A DNA stretch of 64,000 bases from a virus, in IMG/VR virus record IMGVR_UViG_3300012943_000031, positions 42,837 through 106,836 of that record; one strand, written 5' to 3'. The notes beneath the pieces are model-generated. The model was not told the DNA's origin. It searched no databases and was given only the letters and a program-made list of their open reading frames with translations. Below, in pieces: positions 1,874 to 45,500 of the stretch. Both the position numbers and the translations under genes were made by a program. How positions within the stretch are numbered: position 1 is the first letter of the stretch; each line of letters opens with the position of its first letter.

Positions 1874-3142
1874 ATGAAAAAAGTACAACACTGTGAGACT
1901 GAAAACTGTATCCCTACTCTAACATCATGTGTAGAGTGGAATGGAGGCTCTATTGAGTTTCTTGGGATATGCAACGGTGACTCACTAAACAATTTGGTTT
2001 GGGAGATTATTACCAAATTACAGGATATTGCAGGTGATGATTTATCCCAATTTGATATTGATACACTATTGGATATTTGTAATCAACAAGCTCCAACAGA
2101 GGTAACAATCATTTCCATTCTTAACTTAATAAAGAATAATCAGGTTTGTTTAAAGGATTACATTGATACTCTCAATGAAAAATTAAACGAACTATTTAAT
2201 AATACTGGAGTAACAGTTAACTTAAAATGTTACTCACAATTTGACAATCTGGGTAACGCACTCTCTATAACTAGGGATCAGTTAGACCAGCTTGTAATAG
2301 ACAACTTATGTAATCATAAACTACGTATAGAAACCCTTGAGGGTAAGGTAGTTAGCTTACAAAGTCAAATAGACAATATCAATAGTAATGTTACAGTTGA
2401 TGAATTGTCATTCGGAACTTGTGTTAATCCAGCTTCATTACCTACATCTACACAGGTCATCAATCTAGCAAATGCTCATTGTGATCTTGAAGATGCTACA
2501 GGTGATAGTAGTGACATTGCTTCAGCATTAGGTAATACACCTACTGATCTGAATGCAGAGTTTGGGTTGATAACAGGTTGGATATTAGCTCCCCAGAACT
2601 GGGCAGATAATTATAATAACTTACTACTTGAGGTAGAAAACTTACGTCAACGTATTATCTTCATGGAAGAAAACTGTTGTGCATCTACTTGTGATGATGT
2701 TGGAATTGGATTCAGCGTTGTTTACAATGAGGATGGTGATGGTATTATCTTACGTTTCACATCTGGTGCAGGTACATCAATTCCTACTGGATTTGAAGAT
2801 TTAGGTTCTACTGGTATTGTAACAGACATCAATGGTGATACAGTTGAGTTCAACTTAGCTATTGAGAATAATGCTGAAGTAGAGGTAATTGTTAGCTCAC
2901 TTGATTTAACAGGTGATCTGAATGTAAGTGTAACAGGTAGAATTGGAACAGAAGCTCTGACATGTGAGAAATGTTTCGGTAGAGTAATCAAATCTAACAG
3001 TCGTTGTGCATTATGTACAATCACTAATAATGGTGATACTGACATAGTATTAATTTACGATGATGCTAATAGATTGATTGTCAATCCAATAATACCGACA
3101 ACTACTACATCAACAACTACAACTACTACAACAGGAGTTTAA
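1874..3142 (+). CDS. Cys-rich putative virion/fibre protein with coiled coil and C-terminal poly-Thr tail
   Basis: Cys-rich N-terminus (SCVEWNG...LGICNGDSL), heptad segments, PTTTTSTTTTTTTGV end. Confidence 0.55.
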   Translation: MKKVQHCETENCIPTLTSCVEWNGGSIEFLGICNGDSLNNLVWEIITKLQDIAGDDLSQFDIDTLLDICNQQAPTEVTIISILNLIKNNQVCLKDYIDTLNEKLNELFNNTGVTVNLKCYSQFDNLGNALSITRDQLDQLVIDNLCNHKLRIETLEGKVVSLQSQIDNINSNVTVDELSFGTCVNPASLPTSTQVINLANAHCDLEDATGDSSDIASALGNTPTDLNAEFGLITGWILAPQNWADNYNNLLLEVENLRQRIIFMEENCCASTCDDVGIGFSVVYNEDGDGIILRFTSGAGTSIPTGFEDLGSTGIVTDINGDTVEFNLAIENNAEVEVIVSSLDLTGDLNVSVTGRIGTEALTCEKCFGRVIKSNSRCALCTITNNGDTDIVLIYDDANRLIVNPIIPTTTTSTTTTTTTGV

Positions 3143-3732: not shown

Positions 3733-4839
3733 ATGGCTTGTAACGAACAAAATCCATGCAATCAAGACCCATGCCCAGATTTATATGACAACTGTGGCTG
3801 TGTTAATCCAAATACGTTTGGATGTACTACCTATACAGGGACATCATTAGAATGTCTTGATATAGACAATGGTACAAATGGGGATGATGTATTGGGTAAA
3901 ATTGAAGAGGCTGTATGTGACCTTCAGGAGAACAAAGGTAAAGTTCTTATTGATGGCACAGATACATGTCCTGAATACCTATTTGATAAACTAGAAGAAG
4001 GTACTAATATCTCTTTCAATATCACTGGAACAGGATGTGATAGAAAATTAGTTATTAATGCAGTAGAAGGTGGTGAACCAGTAGATGTTAATGTAAAAAT
4101 TACATCTAATGACACAACTTCTGGATACCTTGACCAAAAGATTCAGACAGGTACATACTTAACTAAATCTGTAGTTTCTCCTACAGCTAATGAAAAACTA
4201 AGATTAGACGTAAATGTAGCATCTTTAGTATCTGGAGATTCAGGTAACCAATTAACAATTGGAGGTGATGGTGGTCTTAAGACTTTATATACTGCACCTG
4301 ATGGAAGTGAAACTAAGGTTATGCAGGGTACAGGAACTACTGTAACAGGTACTGGTACTGTAAGTGATCCTTACATAGTATCTACTAACCCGACTATCCA
4401 AGTAGCACGTCCATGTTTTGATGGAGTATGGAGAAACATAACATTGGCCCTAACAGGTAATGTGAATGTTGTTTATGCATCAGGAACACCTCAGTTCAGG
4501 TATCGTTTTGATGGTACTATTGAGTTTAGAGGTTCAATTACCTACACAGTTGATTTCGGAGCATACACTACTGCTAACAGAAAATACACCATCCCTATGG
4601 GAAGTATTGCTGTAACATGTGTAACTGCTGGTGAATTAATTGGCACAAAAGACTTAAAAGGAATAAATTATATAGATGTACCACAGGCTGGTGCTGACCA
4701 ATATACACAAATGTATGGATACATACTACGTATGTCAGCACAGAACTTAACTTTAGAGTTCCAGTCTTCGTTTATTAACAGTACATCAAAATCTATAGTG
4801 GTTAATTTGGAAGGAGCAGTAGTTCATCCAAATATATAA
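3733..4839 (+). CDS. Putative tail fibre/virion protein
   Basis: Cys-rich N-terminus similar to 1874 protein, Gly/Thr-rich repeats (GTGTTVTGTGT), FRYRFDGTIEFRG fibre-tip-like end. Confidence 0.55.
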   Translation: MACNEQNPCNQDPCPDLYDNCGCVNPNTFGCTTYTGTSLECLDIDNGTNGDDVLGKIEEAVCDLQENKGKVLIDGTDTCPEYLFDKLEEGTNISFNITGTGCDRKLVINAVEGGEPVDVNVKITSNDTTSGYLDQKIQTGTYLTKSVVSPTANEKLRLDVNVASLVSGDSGNQLTIGGDGGLKTLYTAPDGSETKVMQGTGTTVTGTGTVSDPYIVSTNPTIQVARPCFDGVWRNITLALTGNVNVVYASGTPQFRYRFDGTIEFRGSITYTVDFGAYTTANRKYTIPMGSIAVTCVTAGELIGTKDLKGINYIDVPQAGADQYTQMYGYILRMSAQNLTLEFQSSFINSTSKSIVVNLEGAVVHPNI

Positions 4840-4885
4840 TAACTATTGAAAACCTCGGTTGTTGGTTCTCCGAGAACAGTTTATA

Positions 4886-4910
4886 GGGCCATCTCTATGG
4901 CCCTTTTTAT
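4886..4910 (+). terminator. Intrinsic terminator
   Basis: AGGGCCAT-CTCT-ATGGCCCT-TTTT. Confidence 0.85.
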
Positions 4911-4911
4911 C

Positions 4912-4926
4912 TGGCACAATTTTTGA
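4912..4926 (+). promoter_or_regulatory. Candidate sigma54-type promoter (-24/-12)
   Basis: TGGCAC-N5-TTGA; a second copy lies at 10960. Confidence 0.4.
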
Positions 4927-4946
4927 ACATTATAAATATAAAAGCT

Positions 4947-4994
4947 ATGACAATCTTAAAAGGTGGAGGATGTGGATGTGGTGGAAAAAAATAA
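4947..4994 (+). CDS. Candidate micropeptide MTILKGGGCGCGGKK
   Basis: A-rich upstream context, downstream of candidate sigma54 promoter. Confidence 0.35.
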   Translation: MTILKGGGCGCGGKK

Positions 4995-5016
4995 TTTCCC
5001 ATTTTCACAAAATAAA

Positions 5017-5048
5017 TTTGGAATTTGCCAAATTACTTCGTATATTTG
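5017..5048 (+). promoter_or_regulatory. Bacteroidota housekeeping promoter of tRNA operon 1
   Basis: TTTG(5017)-N20-TATATTTG(5041). Confidence 0.85.
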
Positions 5049-5052
5049 CATT

Positions 5053-5142
5053 ATGAATTTACATCGTACACATACATGGTTTACTACTTGTCCCCAATGT
5101 CCATTTGGAGGAGAAGGGTGTTGTATGTGTGAAAATAAATAA
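5053..5142 (+). CDS. Leader peptide 1 (MNLHRTHTWFTTCPQCPFGGEGCCMCENK)
   Basis: ATG 4 nt after the -7 box; codons 4-18 use only H,R,T,W,F,C,P,Q, the tRNA set downstream; overlaps antiterminator arm. Confidence 0.85.
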   Translation: MNLHRTHTWFTTCPQCPFGGEGCCMCENK

Positions 5143-5162
5143 GTTTTTTCTTATTCATACTT

Positions 5163-5209
5163 AAAAACCCTTCAGTAATCCAATCACAACTGAAGGGTTT
5201 TTTCTTTTT
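5163..5209 (+). terminator. Attenuator terminator 1
   Basis: AAAAACCCTTCAGT/ACTGAAGGGTTTTT stem + T tract, 2 nt before tRNA-Pro; 5' arm alternatively pairs with GAAGGGT(5113) in the leader. Confidence 0.85.
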
Positions 5210-5211
5210 AT

Positions 5212-5287
5212 CGGGTAGTGGGAGAATGGTTAGTCCACTATGTTTGGGGCATAGAAAATGTCAGTTCGAGTCTGATCTACCCGACCA
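5212..5287 (+). tRNA. tRNA-Pro(TGG)
   Basis: CGGGTAG/CTACCCG acceptor, CTATG-TTTGGGG-CATAG anticodon arm, CCA. Confidence 0.93.
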
Positions 5288-5293
5288 AATAAT

Positions 5294-5369
5294 GCCAGTG
5301 TAGCACAACAGGTAGTGCAGTACTCTTGTAAAGTAAAGGTTGCAAGTTCGATTCTTGTCACTGGCTCCA
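5294..5369 (+). tRNA. tRNA-Thr(TGT)
   Basis: GCCAGTG/CACTGGC, loop CTTGTAA, CCA. Confidence 0.93.
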
Positions 5370-5377
5370 AATTATAT

Positions 5378-5451
5378 GGCCGTATAGCCAAGTGGTAAGG
5401 CACATGTCTGCAAAACTTTGATCCCCAGTTCGAATCTGGGTACGGCTTCCA
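5378..5451 (+). tRNA. tRNA-Cys(GCA)
   Basis: GGCCGTA/TACGGCT, loop CTGCAAA, U73, CCA. Confidence 0.92.
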
Positions 5452-5454
5452 TAT

Positions 5455-5529
5455 GGTGCACTAACTCAATGGTAGAGTTCCTCCCTGAAAAGGAGGGTGT
5501 TCCCAGTTCAAGTCTGGGGTGTACCACCA
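5455..5529 (+). tRNA. tRNA-Phe(GAA)
   Basis: CCTCC-CTGAAAA-GGAGG, CCA. Confidence 0.93.
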
Positions 5530-5532
5530 CAT

Positions 5533-5603
5533 ACGGGTATGGTGAAATGGTATCATAACAGTCTCCAAAACTGCTGTTCAGGGTTCGAATCCTTGTACCC
5601 GTG
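5533..5603 (+). tRNA. tRNA-Trp(CCA)
   Basis: ACGGGTA/TACCCGT, loop CTCCAAA, G73, no encoded CCA end. Confidence 0.92.
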
Positions 5604-5655
5604 CTTTTTCTTATTCCCACATTTCCCTGAGAAATCAAACTTGTGGGTTTCGTAT

Positions 5656-5729
5656 TGTCTCATGGTGTAATGGCAACATAAGAAGCTTTGACCTTCTTGT
5701 TTCAGGTTCGAGCCCTGATGGGACATCCA
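5656..5729 (+). tRNA. tRNA-Gln(TTG)
   Basis: AGAAG-CTTTGAC-CTTCT, U1-A72, CCA. Confidence 0.92.
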
Positions 5730-5734
5730 AATAT

Positions 5735-5805
5735 TACCTTATAGTGTAATGGTAACACACCACTCTCTGAAAGTGTTGTTTAAGGTTCGAGTCCTTATAA
5801 GGTAA
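5735..5805 (+). tRNA. tRNA-Gln(CTG)
   Basis: TACCTTA/TAAGGTA, loop CTCTGAA. Confidence 0.9.
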
Positions 5806-5807
5806 CT

Positions 5808-5881
5808 GTGACTATAGCTTAATGGTTTAGAGCCCTTGGTTGTGACCCAAGGTAGTGTCAGTTCGAATCTGATTAGTCACC
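5808..5881 (+). tRNA. tRNA-His(GTG)
   Basis: GTGACTA/TAGTCAC, CTTGG-TTGTGAC-CCAAG, C73. Confidence 0.92.
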
Positions 5882-5886
5882 TAAAT

Positions 5887-5957
5887 GCCCTATTAGTATA
5901 ATGGAAGTATCTGAGAATACGAATCTCAGGGTAGGAGTTCAAATCTTCTATAGGGTT
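5887..5957 (+). tRNA. tRNA-Arg(ACG)
   Basis: GCCCTAT/ATAGGGT, TGAGA-ATACGAA-TCTCA. Confidence 0.88.
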
Positions 5958-5990
5958 CTGGTACACTTCTTGCTATATGAAAGTATGGTA

Positions 5991-6161
5991 ATGAAAGGTA
6001 AAAATAAACTAGAAAGAATGGAATTACGTGCTGCTAAAAGATTTAACAGACGTTCTAAGAAAATAAAATTCCATCTTACTAATGATTGGAGTTGGACATT
6101 TCCTATCCCTAAAGAGGGAATTCCAAAAATAGTTGAAGAAATATTTGGAAACGGCAAATAA
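5991..6161 (+). CDS. Small basic hypothetical protein (MKGKNKLERMEL...)
   Basis: 3' part of the 5901 ORF lying outside tRNA-Arg. Confidence 0.45.
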   Translation: MKGKNKLERMELRAAKRFNRRSKKIKFHLTNDWSWTFPIPKEGIPKIVEEIFGNGK

Positions 6162-6175
6162 ATGTCGTATCTTTG
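6144..6175 (+). promoter_or_regulatory. Bacteroidota promoter of tRNA operon 2
   Basis: TTTG(6144)-N20-TATCTTTG(6168). Confidence 0.85.
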
Positions 6176-6202
6176 TATTATAAAATTTAAAAGCAGCAAA
6201 TA

Positions 6203-6277
6203 ATGTACTTAATAAATATGATAGTGGATAGAATTAATGGGGCAGAGAAATCTGGCTCTGGACTTCTATTGTCATAA
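6203..6277 (+). CDS. Leader peptide 2 (MYLINMIVDRINGAEKSGSGLLLS)
   Basis: Codons 4-16 use only I,N,M,V,D,R,G,A,E,K, the tRNA set downstream; 3' end is the antiterminator arm. Confidence 0.85.
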   Translation: MYLINMIVDRINGAEKSGSGLLLS

Positions 6278-6302
6278 TCATAGTACTGATTACCAATATT
6301 TT

Positions 6303-6341
6303 AGAAGCCCAGAGCCTACGAAAGTTAGCTCTGGGTTTTTT
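6303..6341 (+). terminator. Attenuator terminator 2
   Basis: AGCCCAGAGC/GCTCTGGGTT + T tract 3 nt before tRNA-Lys; 6302-6316 is complementary (14/15) to 6254-6268. Confidence 0.88.
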
Positions 6342-6344
6342 AAT

Positions 6345-6417
6345 GCCCTTGTAGCAAACTGGTTGTAGGCAATAGTCTTTTAAACTATGGGGTCTGGTTC
6401 GATTCCAGACGGGGGTA
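6345..6417 (+). tRNA. tRNA-Lys(TTT)
   Basis: ATAGT-CTTTTAA-ACTAT, GTTCGATTC T arm. Confidence 0.9.
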
Positions 6418-6425
6418 CACAATAT

Positions 6426-6497
6426 GCAGGATTAATTCAATGGTAGAAATCCATCTTTACATGGTGGAAGCTGGGAGTTCGAGTCTCTCATCCTGTA
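6426..6497 (+). tRNA. tRNA-Val(TAC)
   Basis: GCAGGAT/ATCCTGT, CCATC-TTTACAT-GGTGG. Confidence 0.9.
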
Positions 6498-6503
6498 CAA
6501 TAA

Positions 6504-6575
6504 CTCTCTATAGCACAATGGAAGTGTAACTGCCTTCTAAGCAGTTTGGTATAGGTTCGAATCCTATTAGAGAGT
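6504..6575 (+). tRNA. tRNA-Arg(TCT)
   Basis: CTCTCTA/TAGAGAG, ACTGC-CTTCTAA-GCAGT. Confidence 0.92.
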
Positions 6576-6620
6576 CAGGTCAGTTTTCCAATTCTGCGTG
6601 GAGTACAAAATTGGATATAT

Positions 6621-6692
6621 TCCTCATTAGCTCAATGGTAGAGCGCAAAGCTGTTAACTTTGGAGATTTAGGTTCGAGTCCTAAGTGGGGAG
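6621..6692 (+). tRNA. tRNA-Asn(GTT)
   Basis: CAAAG-CTGTTAA-CTTTG, G73. Confidence 0.93.
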
Positions 6693-6702
6693 CATAATTA
6701 CA

Positions 6703-6777
6703 TGTAGGGTGGACTGGAGATGGTTCCAGCTTGGTCTCATAAGCCAAATGACAGGGGTTCGAATCCCTTCCCTGCAT
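6703..6777 (+). tRNA. tRNA-Met(CAT), possibly initiator type
   Basis: TTGGT-CTCATAA-GCCAA, TGTAGGG/CCCTGCA. Confidence 0.85.
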
Positions 6778-6783
6778 CTATAC

Positions 6784-6934
6784 TGTAAGGTGGTGAAATA
6801 GGCAGACACATCCACTTGTCTCGTGGACACAGATAAAGAAATAGATTAGGTATAATGGGGTTGACCACTAATGTTTAACTTATTGTGTATCTAATTGAAT
6901 CTCTGTATGAGTGGTTCAAATCCCTCCCTTACAG
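6784..6934 (+). ncRNA. tRNA-like RNA with ~80-nt variable arm (loop TTGTCTC)
   Basis: TGTAAGG/CCTTACA acceptor, Leu/Ser-type D arm GTGAAATAGGCAGACAC, TCCAC/GTGGA stem, long hairpin insert, GGTTCAAATCC T arm. Confidence 0.75.
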
Positions 6935-6940
6935 CAACAT

Positions 6941-7014
6941 TGCACATTAGCCAAGAGGTCTAAGGCATCACTCTCATAAGGTGACATTCATGAGTTCGAA
7001 TCTCATATGTGCAA
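6941..7014 (+). tRNA. tRNA-Met(CAT) elongator (Ile2 not excluded)
   Basis: TGCACAT/ATGTGCA, TCACT-CTCATAA-GGTGA. Confidence 0.85.
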
Positions 7015-7043
7015 CATTTGATAATTTTCCTTATATTTGTAAA

Positions 7044-7511
7044 ATGGAAAAGTATTTCAGAACAGAGCAAGGAGAAAGAGTAAATATAGTTGAACACACT
7101 TTGGAACAAATCCAGAAGTGGCCCAACCTAGAGATTTACATAGCAACAGACTCTCAAGACCAAGGTGGAAAGAGTAGATATGCTACAGTAATTGTCTACA
7201 GATATGGGAAAAGAGGTGCTCACTATATATACTTTAGAGAAGACGTACCACGTTGTAAGGACATGTATACTCGTCTATATGATGAGGCTGTTCGTACAAT
7301 TGATACAGCACAGTTAATAGACAGTGAGATACCTGTTAAGTTTGCCGGGTTAGAGTTTGACTACAATAACCTACCAAGACATAACAGTAACAAATTACTC
7401 TCTTCTGTAAGAGGATGGGTAACAGGATTAAATTACAATGCTGTCTTCAAAGGTGATGAATTAGTAGCTGCAAAAGCTGCTGACCATGTTTGTAGACACA
7501 AGAATATATAA
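7044..7511 (+). CDS. RNase H-like YkuK/DUF458 family protein
   Basis: IYIATDSQ, RLYDEAVRT, AAKAADH motifs; start moved to 7044 (after TATATTTG box, outside tRNA). Confidence 0.8.
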   Translation: MEKYFRTEQGERVNIVEHTLEQIQKWPNLEIYIATDSQDQGGKSRYATVIVYRYGKRGAHYIYFREDVPRCKDMYTRLYDEAVRTIDTAQLIDSEIPVKFAGLEFDYNNLPRHNSNKLLSSVRGWVTGLNYNAVFKGDELVAAKAADHVCRHKNI

Positions 7512-7546
7512 GAGATGGATTGCAGCACTCTTTAAAATGCTGATTT

Positions 7547-7620
7547 GCAGAGGTAGTTAAATGGTATAATGCCTTCCTTCCAAGTAGGATTTGGGAGTTC
7601 GATTCTCCTCCTCTGCTCCA
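7547..7620 (+). tRNA. tRNA-Gly(TCC)
   Basis: GCAGAGG/CCTCTGC, loop CTTCCAA, U73, CCA. Confidence 0.92.
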
Positions 7621-7621
7621 T

Positions 7622-7693
7622 GCATTAGTAGCTCAATGGTAGAGTACTACCTTGCCAAGGTAGGAGTTGACAGTTCGAATCTGTTCTAGTGCT
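7622..7693 (+). tRNA. tRNA-Gly(GCC)
   Basis: CTACC-TTGCCAA-GGTAG, U73. Confidence 0.92.
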
Positions 7694-7699
7694 CAATAA

Positions 7700-7773
7700 C
7701 ATGCTGTCATCTAATGGCTTAGGATAACGGACTTTCAATTCGTTCATGTCGGGTTCAATTCCCACCAGCATGA
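7700..7773 (+). tRNA. tRNA-Glu(TTC)
   Basis: CATGCTG/CAGCATG, ACGGA-CTTTCAA-TTCGT, bulged T stem. Confidence 0.88.
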
Positions 7774-7796
7774 CTAACAACTAAAGTCGAAGGACA

Positions 7797-42513: not shown

Positions 42514-45500
42514 ATGGAATGTAGTTTAAATAAAGAGAAAATTAAGCAGGGGATAACTGAGACAGCTAAGTTACTTCTTGAACCTACAGGATTATTTATC
42601 ATAGAGGACAATAAAGTTATTGGTAATAATAATTCTGTGGCAAGTAAAGTTAGTCTTACTCCTGAACAGCAGACAAAAATAGAGGAATCTAAAAAGTATG
42701 CTGATGAGGTGGATGTTGTCTATCGTCAAGGTTTTCTGGATAATCCTGAAGACTTCCTAAGACATATTGCCCTACAAGCTAATTCATCTGCCTCAGAACA
42801 GGAAGGTGCTTTAGGTATGGCAGGGTATGAACTGTTTGATTTGGCATTAGAATTATTCCCTGAAGAAGGTAAACTAAACCCTGAAGAACAGGCTATAAAG
42901 GATATTAATAAAGAATTTAGAGATGAGGTAATACTACAGACATCACCTAATCACTGGGTAATTGCTCCAAGTGATGAGTTAGCCATGCAATATTTAATGG
43001 CTCAGACAGGTTCTGCTGAACAAATTATGGAAGATTTACGTAATAGTTATCTTTCCCAGTTCTCATCTACATCCCTAAACTTAATGGATGAAAACCTGTG
43101 GCTTAATCATCCGGCTCTCCAAGATGCCACAACACAACGTCTCTTAGAATTTGCTAAGAAAATTAACCCAGATTTCCGTGTTATTGTTACAGATGAGTTA
43201 GATCAAAATGCTGTATCCTTAATCCGTGATAATATAATCTTCATTCGTCAGGGTTCAATTATCTCAGAATTACCTGAGGAAATATCCCACTTCTTCTTTG
43301 AATTACTTCCTGATGACCATCCTCTGAAAGTAGAGATGATGGAAAAGATCGTAGATTTTCCTATCTACTTAGAAACATACCACAAATATAAGAATGATAC
43401 TGCCTATCAGGTAAACTCACGTGTTGATATTCAGAAGATTAAAAGAGAAGCTTCTGCTAAATTGATGGGTGAATATATCAAAGCTGCCTACCAAAATAAG
43501 GCTGATGAAAAGTATGGTAAAAAGAGAGGTTGGTTACGTGACATGATCCACAAGATTATGAAGTTCCTGAGAAAGGCTTTCGTAACTACTTCAGCCCCAG
43601 TATATTCTGAACCTGAGTTTGATATTAACTCCCCATTCCGTCAGGCTGCAAGTGAAATCATAGATAAAGATATTACCAGCCTTAACCTAAAGAAAATCCC
43701 AAGTATATATGATTCTATCTTCTTCTCAAAAGTAGAGGATGAAATCCCGGAAGGATACGAGGCATCAGATATTGCCAAATCTCTATATGAGTTCTCCCAA
43801 CAGTTAAAAAGACAGGTTACTAAAACCTTCTTCACTTACGTTAAGAAGGAGAACATGAAGGGACTGGAGGAATTGCTCCAAGACCCAAGTAACAAAAACT
43901 ATAATAGAATCTGGGACATCATTAATAGATTAGATGATTCTGGTAGAATTGTTATGGAGATGATGGATACAGGAGGTCGTGATTTAATCTCTATGACTAG
44001 AGCTACATCTGCTTTAGCAGAGGCTTATAGAGAAATGGAACATATCCCTGAGGCTATCAGTAAGGTTCTTGATAAGGTAAAGAATGATGGTACTGAAGAA
44101 CAGATAATTAATAACATCACTGAGCTACAGGCATATTTCCAGTTTTCAGATACATTCAAGAAAATAACAGATGAGTTCGTACAATTGTTGAGTTTTCTAC
44201 GTGAAAATTATCCAGTAAAAAGAGAGGCAAATCTCATATATGATAGGATGATTGAGAAGATGGGTACAACTGAGTTGAGATTTAAGGTTGTAGATGAGAA
44301 GATTATGAAGGCTCTTCAAGCTCATATCATAGATGTTACCCATAAATGGACAGATAAAGCATTCTCAAAATACAGAGGTGAGATAAATGAACTACATGAT
44401 TCCTTAGACCATCAGAAGCTAAAGAATAATGTAGCTAAACTCATTACACAAAGAATTACAGGATTAGAACAGATCAAACAAGCTGTTACTGGAAACTTCC
44501 CACTAGCAAAAGATTTAATGTTAGCTGATGGAACTAAGGTAGATATTAGTAAGATCAAGGATATGTCACAGATTGATTACGTGATATTCATGTTCTCATC
44601 TCCTACATTGATAAGTGACCCATTCATCTCTAGCCTAATGGCACATTTTACTGATAAGTATGTTGCTGCTATGGTTAAGGGCCAAAGAGAGGCCAAAATA
44701 TTTGCTGATAGTATATTACCTATCAAAAAAGAACTGGCTGATATGGGTGTTGGTTGGTATGAAGCTGAGGAAGCTATCCAGAATGTTCAGTCATTCTATG
44801 ACCAATCACTGGAAGATAAAGAAACTAAGAAAAGAGTATTCCTTTCCCAGACTAATCGTTTTGATTTCCAATATCAGAGACAATTACGTTTAGAAGAAAT
44901 GAGAAATGCTGCCAGAGATATTGATAAACTACAGGCAGAGTTTCGTAATGTTGAGACTACAGAGGAAAGATCAACGGCCTTGAAAGCTCTAATCCCAACT
45001 AAACAGAAGGAATTACAGGATAAAAGAGATGACTATGACAAGTTCTTAGATGACTGGTCACATCGTCCATTTACCCCTGAATACTACAGACTTCAGAAAA
45101 TGCTGAAGGACAATAGGAAAGATACGCCTACTCTGAGAAGATGGAAGGAAATTAACAGACAATTATTGATCCTAGAAGAAATGCAGTTCATGGCTGTAGC
45201 ATATGAAGCTACAATAAATGACAGTCGTTATGACCAAATTACTCTTGAAATTGCCACATTACAGAATGAAAAACTAAGATTACAGGATCAAATCCCTCAA
45301 TCTGAAAAATCTACTATAGATGCATTAAATGAGATATATGAAGTAGATGAGGTGGCAACATCACGTTTACGTCAGGCTCACAAAAACAAATGGACAAATG
45401 CCTACGTACAGGCTAGAACAGAGGAAGGTAGTCCAAGAAGTAAACAACAACTGGAAGACTTTGCTGATACTGCATATGAAGCATTATATACTATCATTTC

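Follow-up and report, generated by a model that had tools for sequence, protein, structure and literature searches.

Introduction

Some leader peptides are multivalent: thrL senses Thr and Ile, and ilvL, the leader of ilvGMEDA, senses Ile, Val and Leu. Here we describe an element of similar layout within a phage transfer RNA (tRNA) array, at positions 6203-6341 of a 64,000-nucleotide (nt) stretch of IMG/VR virus record IMGVR_UViG_3300012943_000031 (positions 42,837 to 106,836 of that record; hereafter the window, from whose first letter unqualified positions are counted). Like thrL, ilvL, trpL and hisL, it has a promoter-proximal short open reading frame (ORF), regulatory codons overlying a region 1, mutually exclusive helices 1:2, 2:3 and 3:4, and an intrinsic terminator directly before the genes that would be regulated; with thrL and ilvL it also shares more than one amino acid per leader. 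The enterobacterial leaders differ in regulating enzymes, whereas tRNA genes lie downstream here, and in using codon runs, whereas codons occur once or twice here. The phage element is further set apart by the 10 amino acids and 12 anticodon types that it would sense, by being phage-encoded and by its lack of similarity to any Rfam leader family. We consider it probable that a phage tRNA operon is controlled here by a ribosome-mediated attenuator of the trp/his/ilv type. What is new in this proposal is the target, tRNA genes, and the inventory-type leader; the putative mechanism itself is that of a leader-peptide attenuator.

Two further systems are close in logic. In pheM, the leader of pheST, a leader peptide likewise gauges specific codons to set a component of the translation apparatus, but the target there is a synthetase, a single amino acid is sensed through a codon run and the genome is cellular. 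In T-box leaders, codon-anticodon readout picks between antiterminator and terminator before tRNA-charging genes; the T-box, however, binds uncharged tRNA without a ribosome and has one specifier codon and a conserved T-box sequence, whereas the codons of the phage element are carried by an open, conserved ORF. Because the genes downstream of the phage element are tRNA genes, the sensed molecule would be the product itself. Phage tRNA genes are usually explained by compensation for codon usage, by replacement of decaying host tRNAs or by escape from tRNA-cleaving defences; all of these predict that supply follows demand, and an attenuator would be the device for that.

The nearest case in print is the trn array of Anabaena sp. 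PCC 7120, which is supernumerary and horizontally mobile, stays silent by default and is turned on by impairment of translation (PMC8421152; PMC10272220). Its control lies at the promoter, where the ribbon-helix-helix repressor TrcR binds tandem 9-nt direct repeats that extend over the -10 box and the transcription start (PMC8421152; PMC10272220), and the 2021 Anabaena paper makes no mention of a leader peptide, attenuation or a terminator (PMC8421152). The likeness would be that of a tRNA array switched by the state of translation, and the difference is a promoter repressor with no leader. Our full-text literature searches found no paper describing leader-peptide attenuation of tRNA genes, and nothing on Lbo-JY46, a cultured phage that we found to carry a homologous element. 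If the attenuator reading is right, classical attenuation would extend from metabolic operons to stable-RNA genes.

The leader lists the tRNAs of its own operon

The 106,836-bp source record (36.5% G+C; CheckV completeness 72%) contains a tRNA array that spans 5212-10640 of the window, in which ARAGORN finds 26 tRNA genes at default settings and two more, Ser(tga) and Tyr(gta), at relaxed settings. A nucleotide search of INPHARED returned tRNA and HNH similarities only and no close relative, and the sequencing runs listed as containing the sequence are DNA runs, with no RNA run among them; the best is from a soil metagenome, from which this DNA may derive. The attenuator under study belongs to the second of three units in the array (Table 1). 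Up to its terminator at 8506-8532, operon 2 holds 13 tRNA genes of 12 anticodon types; together with an RNaseH-like and an HNH gene, these make up the operon behind the attenuator, none of whose genes encodes an amino-acid biosynthesis enzyme or a synthetase. A first-pass annotation, made from the sequence alone, had placed these tRNA genes correctly, and its YkuK (RNaseH-like) and HNH genes are borne out by domain matches (Table 1).

The ATG at 6203, 27 nt past the -7 box, is unchanged in 12 of 12 aligned homologues; an ATG at 6218 is not conserved among them. From it a short ORF runs through a core of 13 codons, ATA AAT ATG ATA GTG GAT AGA ATT AAT GGG GCA GAG AAA, none of which falls outside the operon-2 tRNA set. 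With the GGC of the tail at 6254 added, the codons are readable by all 12 operon-2 anticodon types, the two for Ile and the two for Gly included. Among the 992 ATG-initiated ORFs of 12-40 codons in the 107-kb genome, only 6203-6277 combines 12/12 coverage with a 13-codon run confined to its own operon, and just 2 of 200,000 simulated ORFs, with codons drawn from genome usage, reached both values. The annotation had pointed out that the leader also lists Gly, Glu, Asp, Ile and Ala, the tRNAs for which lie beyond the RNaseH-like gene or the HNH gene; this is correct, and the list is kept in relatives.

Mutually exclusive helices connect the leader to its terminator

The same annotation proposed that an antiterminator strand is encoded in the tail of the leader. 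We found its coordinates and pairing to be exact: GGCTCTGGACTTCTA (6254-6268) is complementary to TAGAAGCCCAGAGCC (6302-6316), the 5' arm of the terminator, at 14 of 15 positions, the single mismatch being an A opposite a C. When the exact reverse complement was sought with up to three mismatches, these were the only sites in the 64 kb. The upstream strand keeps the frame of the ORF, in which it encodes G S G L L. The 1:2 pairing that had been suggested is also present, ATGATAGTGGA (6218) pairing with TCTATTGTCAT (6265) over 11 bp, three of them G-U, as part of the minimum free energy (MFE) fold. That fold, calculated for 6203-6341, consists of the 1:2 hairpin (6217-6231/6263-6276) and the terminator hairpin (6303-6340) at -47 kcal/mol, with z = -5.3 and none of 200 shuffles as stable; the full transcript without a ribosome folds as 1:2 plus 3:4. 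Helices 1:2, 2:3 and 3:4 are all present and exclude one another. The 1:2 hairpin recurs in five of the six relatives that we folded (L008 is without it), and the RNAalifold consensus of the terminator includes four compensated pairs.

We modelled how a ribosome on the leader would affect these helices, taking its footprint to begin 18 nt before the A-site codon and to end 12 nt beyond the first base of that codon, and letting transcripts end before the 3' arm of the terminator, in six sequences. In this model a stall at any core codon save the last two or three leaves region 2 free, and the freed strand pairs with 12-13 nt of the terminator arm (8 in L007) in all six sequences. When the A site is at tail codons overlapping region 2, 2:3 pairing is lost. 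With the ribosome at the stop codon, 2:3 is still masked in the window, L007 and L008, and pairing returns in L001, L006 and L010, where the ORFs run past region 2. The modelled states follow the three-state logic of classical attenuators.

Related phages keep the codon set and the RNA pairing

Two genes led to related IMG/VR and metagenome contigs with the same array: that for the protein encoded upstream of it, and the RNaseH-like gene within (PF04308). Homologues of leader 2 occur on about 13 contigs (L001, L006, L007, L008, L010, L013, L016, L017, L018, L019, L021, L023 and L091); L026 is the same as L007, L014 is the same as L013, and L091 is the cultured Leptolyngbya phage Lbo-JY46 (PP438436.1). 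The residue set of leader 2 is conserved but its order is not, as seen in IVDRINGAEK, IVVDNGMARGIEKD and NIIAMVKGNIEDRN and in INMIVDRINGAEK, NMIVDRMIGANEK, IVDNMICGNGRAKE and NIIGIVMEADRK. The set also changes along with the operon. In L007, L019 and L091, tRNA-Cys is in operon 2 rather than operon 1; leader 2 gains a Cys codon there, and the cores of leader 1 are without Cys (FQHTRFWFTQPT, RQHTQFWFPT). These three share a rearranged operon order, so the relocation of Cys was probably one evolutionary event.

That behaviour bears on whether the ORF might simply encode a functional micro-protein, with the hairpin as the terminator of its gene, the tRNAs made from other transcripts and the codon match a by-product. 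A promoter, a small ORF and a terminator do make a complete gene, and the CxxC...CxxC pattern of leader 1 could bind metal. Yet the residue order of leader 2 is not conserved and its composition alone is kept; its tail is conserved as RNA across a shift of frame (see below); and tRNA-Lys begins 3 nt after the terminator ends, with no promoter motif in between. Leader 1 as a zinc-binding micro-protein was considered as a candidate and rejected, as its core Cys residues vanish exactly where tRNA-Cys has left the operon. We regard a micro-protein as very improbable.

The match of leader to operon reaches the level of isoacceptors. Arg codons in leader 2 are AGA or AGG in 16 of 16 cases, and operon 2 carries Arg(tct); in the cores of leader 1 they are CGT or CGC in 8 of 8, and operon 1 carries Arg(acg). 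Arg codons of the genome are AGR in 68% of cases; Fisher's test gives 5e-6, the lineages being related. Such a division of Arg by isoacceptor suggests sensing at the level of the codon and its tRNA rather than of the amino acid. Across 10 lineages, a comparison of leader class with residue set gives diagonal shares of 0.59, 0.71 and 0.52 and a chi-square of 249, values that are descriptive since the lineages are related.

These patterns also help to weigh a reading in which the same attenuator gauges how fast translation runs overall, or how well amino acids are charged, under starvation or stress that blocks translation, and not how abundant the tRNAs supplied by the phage are; the tRNA operon would then be a regulon of translational stress, with a purpose like that of the Anabaena trn array. 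A stalled ribosome cannot tell a missing tRNA from an uncharged one, as is known from the trp and his attenuators; with a core that spans 10 amino acids, nearly any translational stress would give read-through; and impaired translation induces the Anabaena tRNA array (PMC8421152). A sensor of general stress would, however, need neither the partition by which each of the three leaders is confined to the set of its own operon nor the match to codon and isoacceptor seen in Arg (CGY in leader 1, AGR in leader 2) and in the sampling of both Ile and both Gly types. We therefore judge this reading unlikely, though less so than the other alternatives discussed here.

Beyond the core, the annotation had attributed the tail residues that match no operon tRNA to RNA structure. 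The tail motif GGCTCYGGG is indeed kept in relatives while the reading frame differs, giving S/D-G-S-G in the window and L001 and S-A-P-G in L006, L017 and L023. The duplex of region 2 with its cognate region 3 has an energy of -24.4 kcal/mol in the window, -23.9 in both L001 and L006, -17.2 in L008, -28.1 in L010, -23.8 in L013 and -27.0 in L023. Summed over cognate tail:arm duplexes, the energy is -205 kcal/mol as against -142 ± 13 when tails and arms are permuted, and none of 100,000 permutations reaches the cognate sum. Compensating changes are visible in individual sequences, with CTCTGG/CCAGAG in the window, CTCCGG/CCGGAG in L001 and CCTCAGGG/CCCTGAGG in L010. The last of these has neither nucleotide of the A-C mismatch of the window and forms a perfect 12-bp 2:3 helix, its terminator needing two G-U pairs.

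A covariance-model alignment of eight sequences, which was fitted to the modelled helix, has 89.9% of its cells paired and changes on both sides in 5 of 14 pairs; the covariation score is 0.204, compared with 0.086 ± 0.026 for shuffled alignments (0/500), and registers slid along the helix give 26-59% pairing. The first covariance-model search had returned reverse-strand and spurious matches, and the alignment comes from a stricter threshold on eight sources. Alignments made with MAFFT were rejected: region 2 of L006, L017 and L023 was one base off and region 3 of L007, L008 and L019 was misplaced, and because column counts are meaningless out of register, we relied on the alignment-free duplex permutation and the covariance-model alignment. 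A search of viral contigs with a DNA pattern for region 2 was also set aside, having produced two chance matches in unrelated coding DNA (L002 and L003). From the permutation and the covariation together, we conclude that the predicted 2:3 antiterminator helix is under selection. Given a set that is kept without its order, the move of Cys, the Arg split and a tail conserved at the RNA level, chance or a function of the peptide appears unlikely.

Extent of the transcription unit

Matches to the promoter motif number nine in the 64 kb, against 2.8 expected. The tRNA region has only four of them (5017, 6144, 9056 and 9814), and each heads a tRNA unit; the same motif precedes the homologous leaders in L001, L006, L008, L010 and L091. 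We take the motif to resemble the -33/-7 consensus of Bacteroidota. Lbo-JY46, the nearest cultured relative, is recorded on a cyanobacterium and has the same TTTG...TAnnTTTG type of promoter. Transcription of unit 2 would start near 6182.

The first-pass annotation had reasoned from the distal tRNAs in the leader that one transcript runs to 8536, with a possible internal start at a -7 box at 7032. Between 6341 and 8506 the window contains no TTTG-N17-23-TAnnTTTG motif and no hairpin with a T-run, and hence no full promoter or convincing terminator, which, together with the listing of the distal tRNAs in the leader, is consistent with a single transcript from about 6180 to 8536. L001 has a complete promoter before its RNaseH-like gene. 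The -7 box at 7032 exists, but the nearest TTTG is just 11 nt upstream of it, which is not promoter spacing.

Proposed mechanism

In the mechanism that we propose, transcription would proceed from the promoter at 6144-6175 and a ribosome would translate the 24-codon leader from 6203. Were the core (6212-6250) decoded fast, the ribosome would come to lie on the tail or the stop codon and cover region 2 (6254-6268), leaving region 3 to pair with region 4, and transcription would terminate at 6341, before tRNA-Lys. Without translation, region 1 would hold region 2, and the terminator would form as well. A stall in the core, where a tRNA is scarce or uncharged, would instead cover region 1 and leave region 2 free; the free strand would capture region 3 once this is made, no terminator would form and polymerase would read through into the 13 tRNA genes. 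The outcome would be a demand-driven negative feedback on tRNA supply. As each anticodon type of the operon has one or two codons in the core, the leader would act as an OR-gate over the products of its own operon.

Whether phages in this way meter their tRNA pool with the ribosome at isoacceptor resolution, each tRNA operon standing behind an 'inventory' leader with one codon per encoded species such that any single loss triggers re-supply of the whole set, we regard as an evenly balanced question. A host anticodon nuclease could cause the loss that acts as trigger, as could the decay of host tRNAs that follows shut-off, or the demand of late genes. Were this reading right, no earlier case would be known of tRNA genes that regulate themselves by way of the decoding of their own codons. 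The element would be a compact natural sensor, about 160 nt for up to 12 tRNA species (20 amino acids in relatives), and such leaders provide a sequence rule by which units of this kind can be spotted in unannotated phage genomes. With Lbo-JY46 in culture, the attenuation idea is directly testable.

Several observations weigh against this proposal. From sequence and comparison of relatives we infer where transcription starts, that the leader is translated, that ribosomes stall on it, that read-through is conditional and that one transcript reaches 8536; coupling of transcription to translation in the host is assumed. The fit of the covariance-model alignment to the modelled helix means that it leans towards that helix, and the 2:3 duplexes of L007 (-12.9 kcal/mol) and L019 (-9.6 kcal/mol) are no better than background. 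In four of six sequences 2:3 is already the most stable ribosome-free fold of an RNA that ends before region 4, so default termination would depend on folding kinetics and could be leaky. The last core codons (GAG and AAA) are near enough to region 2 for a stall there to mask it in the footprint model, so that Lys, the first tRNA of the operon, might be poorly sensed. Each sensed codon occurs once or twice, with no runs as in hisL or pheL, and sensitivity to a partial shortage may therefore be low. The leader of L018 has Gly and that of L008 has Ala, and the cognate tRNA was not found in their operons. An HNH-like insertion parts the terminator from tRNA-Lys in L013 and apparently in L021. Finally, with a promoter such as that of L001, the distal tRNAs may in some relatives be partly independent of the attenuator.

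Single leaders for all amino acids in distant phages

In more distant contigs that have the RNaseH-like gene, we found one large tRNA array behind one leader and terminator (L029, L031, L050 and L063; Table 1). All 20 amino acids occur in just three of the 1719 ORFs with 25-40 codons that the fetched loci contain, and these are the leaders of L029, L031 and L050; the simulated chance of 20 distinct residues is 2e-4 to 3e-3 for each. By ARAGORN, the array of L031 has tRNAs for all 20 amino acids and those of L029 and L050 have fewer. The tails of the ORFs in L029, L031 and L063 are complementary to the 5' arm of the terminator; in L050 the pairing is no better than background. In L029, L050 and L063, the terminator is followed by 53-119 nt of unexplained sequence before the first tRNA begins. 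With three partitioned leaders in the clade that includes a cultured phage, and single all-20 leaders in distant phages, the inventory-leader design looks modular and widespread.

The distant leaders bear on a further alternative, in which the helices switch independently of translation or the terminator is simply leaky. Expression of the tRNAs would then be set by a factor, either protein or RNA (a phage antiterminator, or tRNA bound as in T-box elements), or by partial read-through, and the ORF would go untranslated. An RNA switch built from helices 1:2, 2:3 and 3:4 would work with any ligand, antitermination factors are often used by phages, and the start of leader 2 is without a Shine-Dalgarno sequence. 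An untranslated ORF, however, leaves the open frame and its invariant ATG without a reason, and explains neither a residue set that tracks the operon tRNAs through reshuffling and the move of tRNA-Cys nor the all-20 leaders. Against a ligand switch, an Rfam scan of 4800-10800 (E up to 1) gave no match to the T-box (RF00230), to another cis-regulatory family or to a leader family; it returned tRNA matches, chance reverse-strand matches to Plastid-ycf2 over tRNA genes and one weak match to RNase P. Leader messenger RNAs (mRNAs) that are A-rich or nearly leaderless would moreover fit hosts that initiate without a Shine-Dalgarno sequence, such as Bacteroidota. We consider a switch or leaky terminator of this kind improbable, and favour the ribosome-mediated attenuator.

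Neighbouring units and other features of the array

Units 1 and 3 follow the design of unit 2 (Table 1), and their leaders, too, match the tRNAs of their own operons. Operon 1 carries tRNAs for Pro, Thr, Cys, Phe, Trp, Gln, Gln, His and Arg(acg), and operon 3 those for Leu, Leu, Ser, Ser and Tyr. In both units the ATG lies 4 nt past the -7 box, and leaders 1 and 3 may be translated from nearly leaderless mRNAs. The codon test for leader 3 is not significant with the default ARAGORN tRNA set, because that set misses Ser(tga) and Tyr(gta). Lbo-JY46 carries all three leader-terminator units (L091 positions 1790-2100, 5340-5530 and 6070-6255), none of which is annotated in its GenBank record.

Table 1. 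Features of the three tRNA units in the window and of single leaders in distant contigs (positions in the window unless a contig is named; nt, nucleotides).
Feature	Coordinates	Strand	Basis or detail
Unit 2 promoter: TTTG 6144-6147, 20 nt, TATCTTTG 6168-6175	6144..6175	+	Pattern search
Unit 2 leader ORF, 24 codons and stop, MYLINMIVDRINGAEKSGSGLLLS	6203..6277	+	
Regulatory core, 13 codons (leader codons 4-16), I N M I V D R I N G A E K	6212..6250	+	
Region 1, 5' strand of 1:2 helix, overlaps core codons, partner 6263-6276	6217..6231	+	MFE fold
Region 2, predicted antiterminator 5' strand, within ORF tail (G S G L L)	6254..6268	+	
Region 3, common to antiterminator (with region 2) and terminator (5' arm)	6302..6316	+	
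Intrinsic terminator: ~13-bp stem, inner GAAA-capped stem, then T6	6303..6341	+	-19 to -22 kcal/mol
tRNA Lys(ttt), Val(tac), Arg(tct), Asn(gtt), Met(cat), Met(cat)	6345..7015	+	ARAGORN, Rfam tRNA model
RNaseH-like gene inside operon (YkuK family)	7044..7511	+	PF04308, 7e-15
tRNA Gly(tcc), Gly(gcc), Glu(ttc)	7547..7774	+	ARAGORN, Rfam tRNA model
HNH endonuclease gene	7797..8195	+	HNH domain, 1e-4
tRNA Asp(gtc), Ile(tat), Ile(gat), Ala(tgc)	8191..8503	+	ARAGORN, Rfam tRNA model
Operon-closing terminator	8506..8538	+	Homologous terminator after tRNA-Ala in L001
Unit 1 promoter	5017..5048		
Unit 1 leader, core HRTHTWFTTCPQCPF	5053..5142		
Unit 1 terminator	~5163..5209		
Unit 3 promoter	9814..9845		
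Unit 3 leader, MKITSTYSSLSLLYS, core S.YSSLSLLYS	9850..9897		
Unit 3 terminator	~9947..9983		
L029 leader, element to 6939	6780..6875		20 distinct amino acids in 31 codons; terminator to first tRNA 90 nt
L031 leader, element to 6833	6659..6778		20 distinct amino acids in 39 codons; terminator to first tRNA 14 nt
L050 leader, element to 5982	5822..5929		20 distinct amino acids in 35 codons; terminator to first tRNA 119 nt
L063 leader, element to 2113	1970..2056		19 distinct amino acids in 28 codons; terminator to first tRNA 53 nt

Just upstream of leader 1 there is a conserved Gly/Cys-rich micro-ORF (..KGGGCGCGGKK), at 4947-4994 in the window, 11225-11287 in L001 and 6477-6617 in L006; in L006 it is fused in frame with leader 1.

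The RNaseH-like gene (YkuK/DUF458, PF04308) is embedded in the tRNA array of every relative, where it keeps the same operon position, and occurs also in Vibrio phage KVP40-like genomes; its product could be a tRNA-processing or repair nuclease. The HNH gene of operon 2 is probably a mobile insertion in the array. Genes or fragments of HNH homing endonucleases are found at differing array sites, namely 7797-8195 in the window, 12496-12880 and 13959-14290 in L001, and 8905-9054 in L013.

An insert of 150 nt (6784-6935) that L001 and L011 lack separates the two tRNA-Met genes of the window. Its ends resemble the acceptor and T-arm of a tRNA, with a long internal insertion between them, and it does not match the Rfam tRNA model; its identification as an intron-containing tRNA (anticodon cta) by the intron mode of ARAGORN is one that we distrust, the fold having z = -1.35.

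In operon 3, tRNA-Ser(tga) (10371-10462) and tRNA-Tyr(gta) (10565-10638) are missed by both ARAGORN at default settings and the Rfam tRNA model, and these two phage tRNAs are atypical. The roughly 230 nt between tRNA-Leu(taa) and tRNA-Ser(tga) (10143-10370) resemble archaeal RNase P RNA only weakly, scoring 19.9 bits where the gathering score is 84.

Between operons 2 and 3, a separate promoter at the head of 9056-9664 precedes a tRNA with anticodon cta at 9099-9171 (an amber suppressor, called 'Pyl' by ARAGORN), followed downstream by a gene for a PTH2-type peptidyl-tRNA hydrolase (9200-9664; Pfam 7e-7). The cta tRNA is also carried by L016 and L022.

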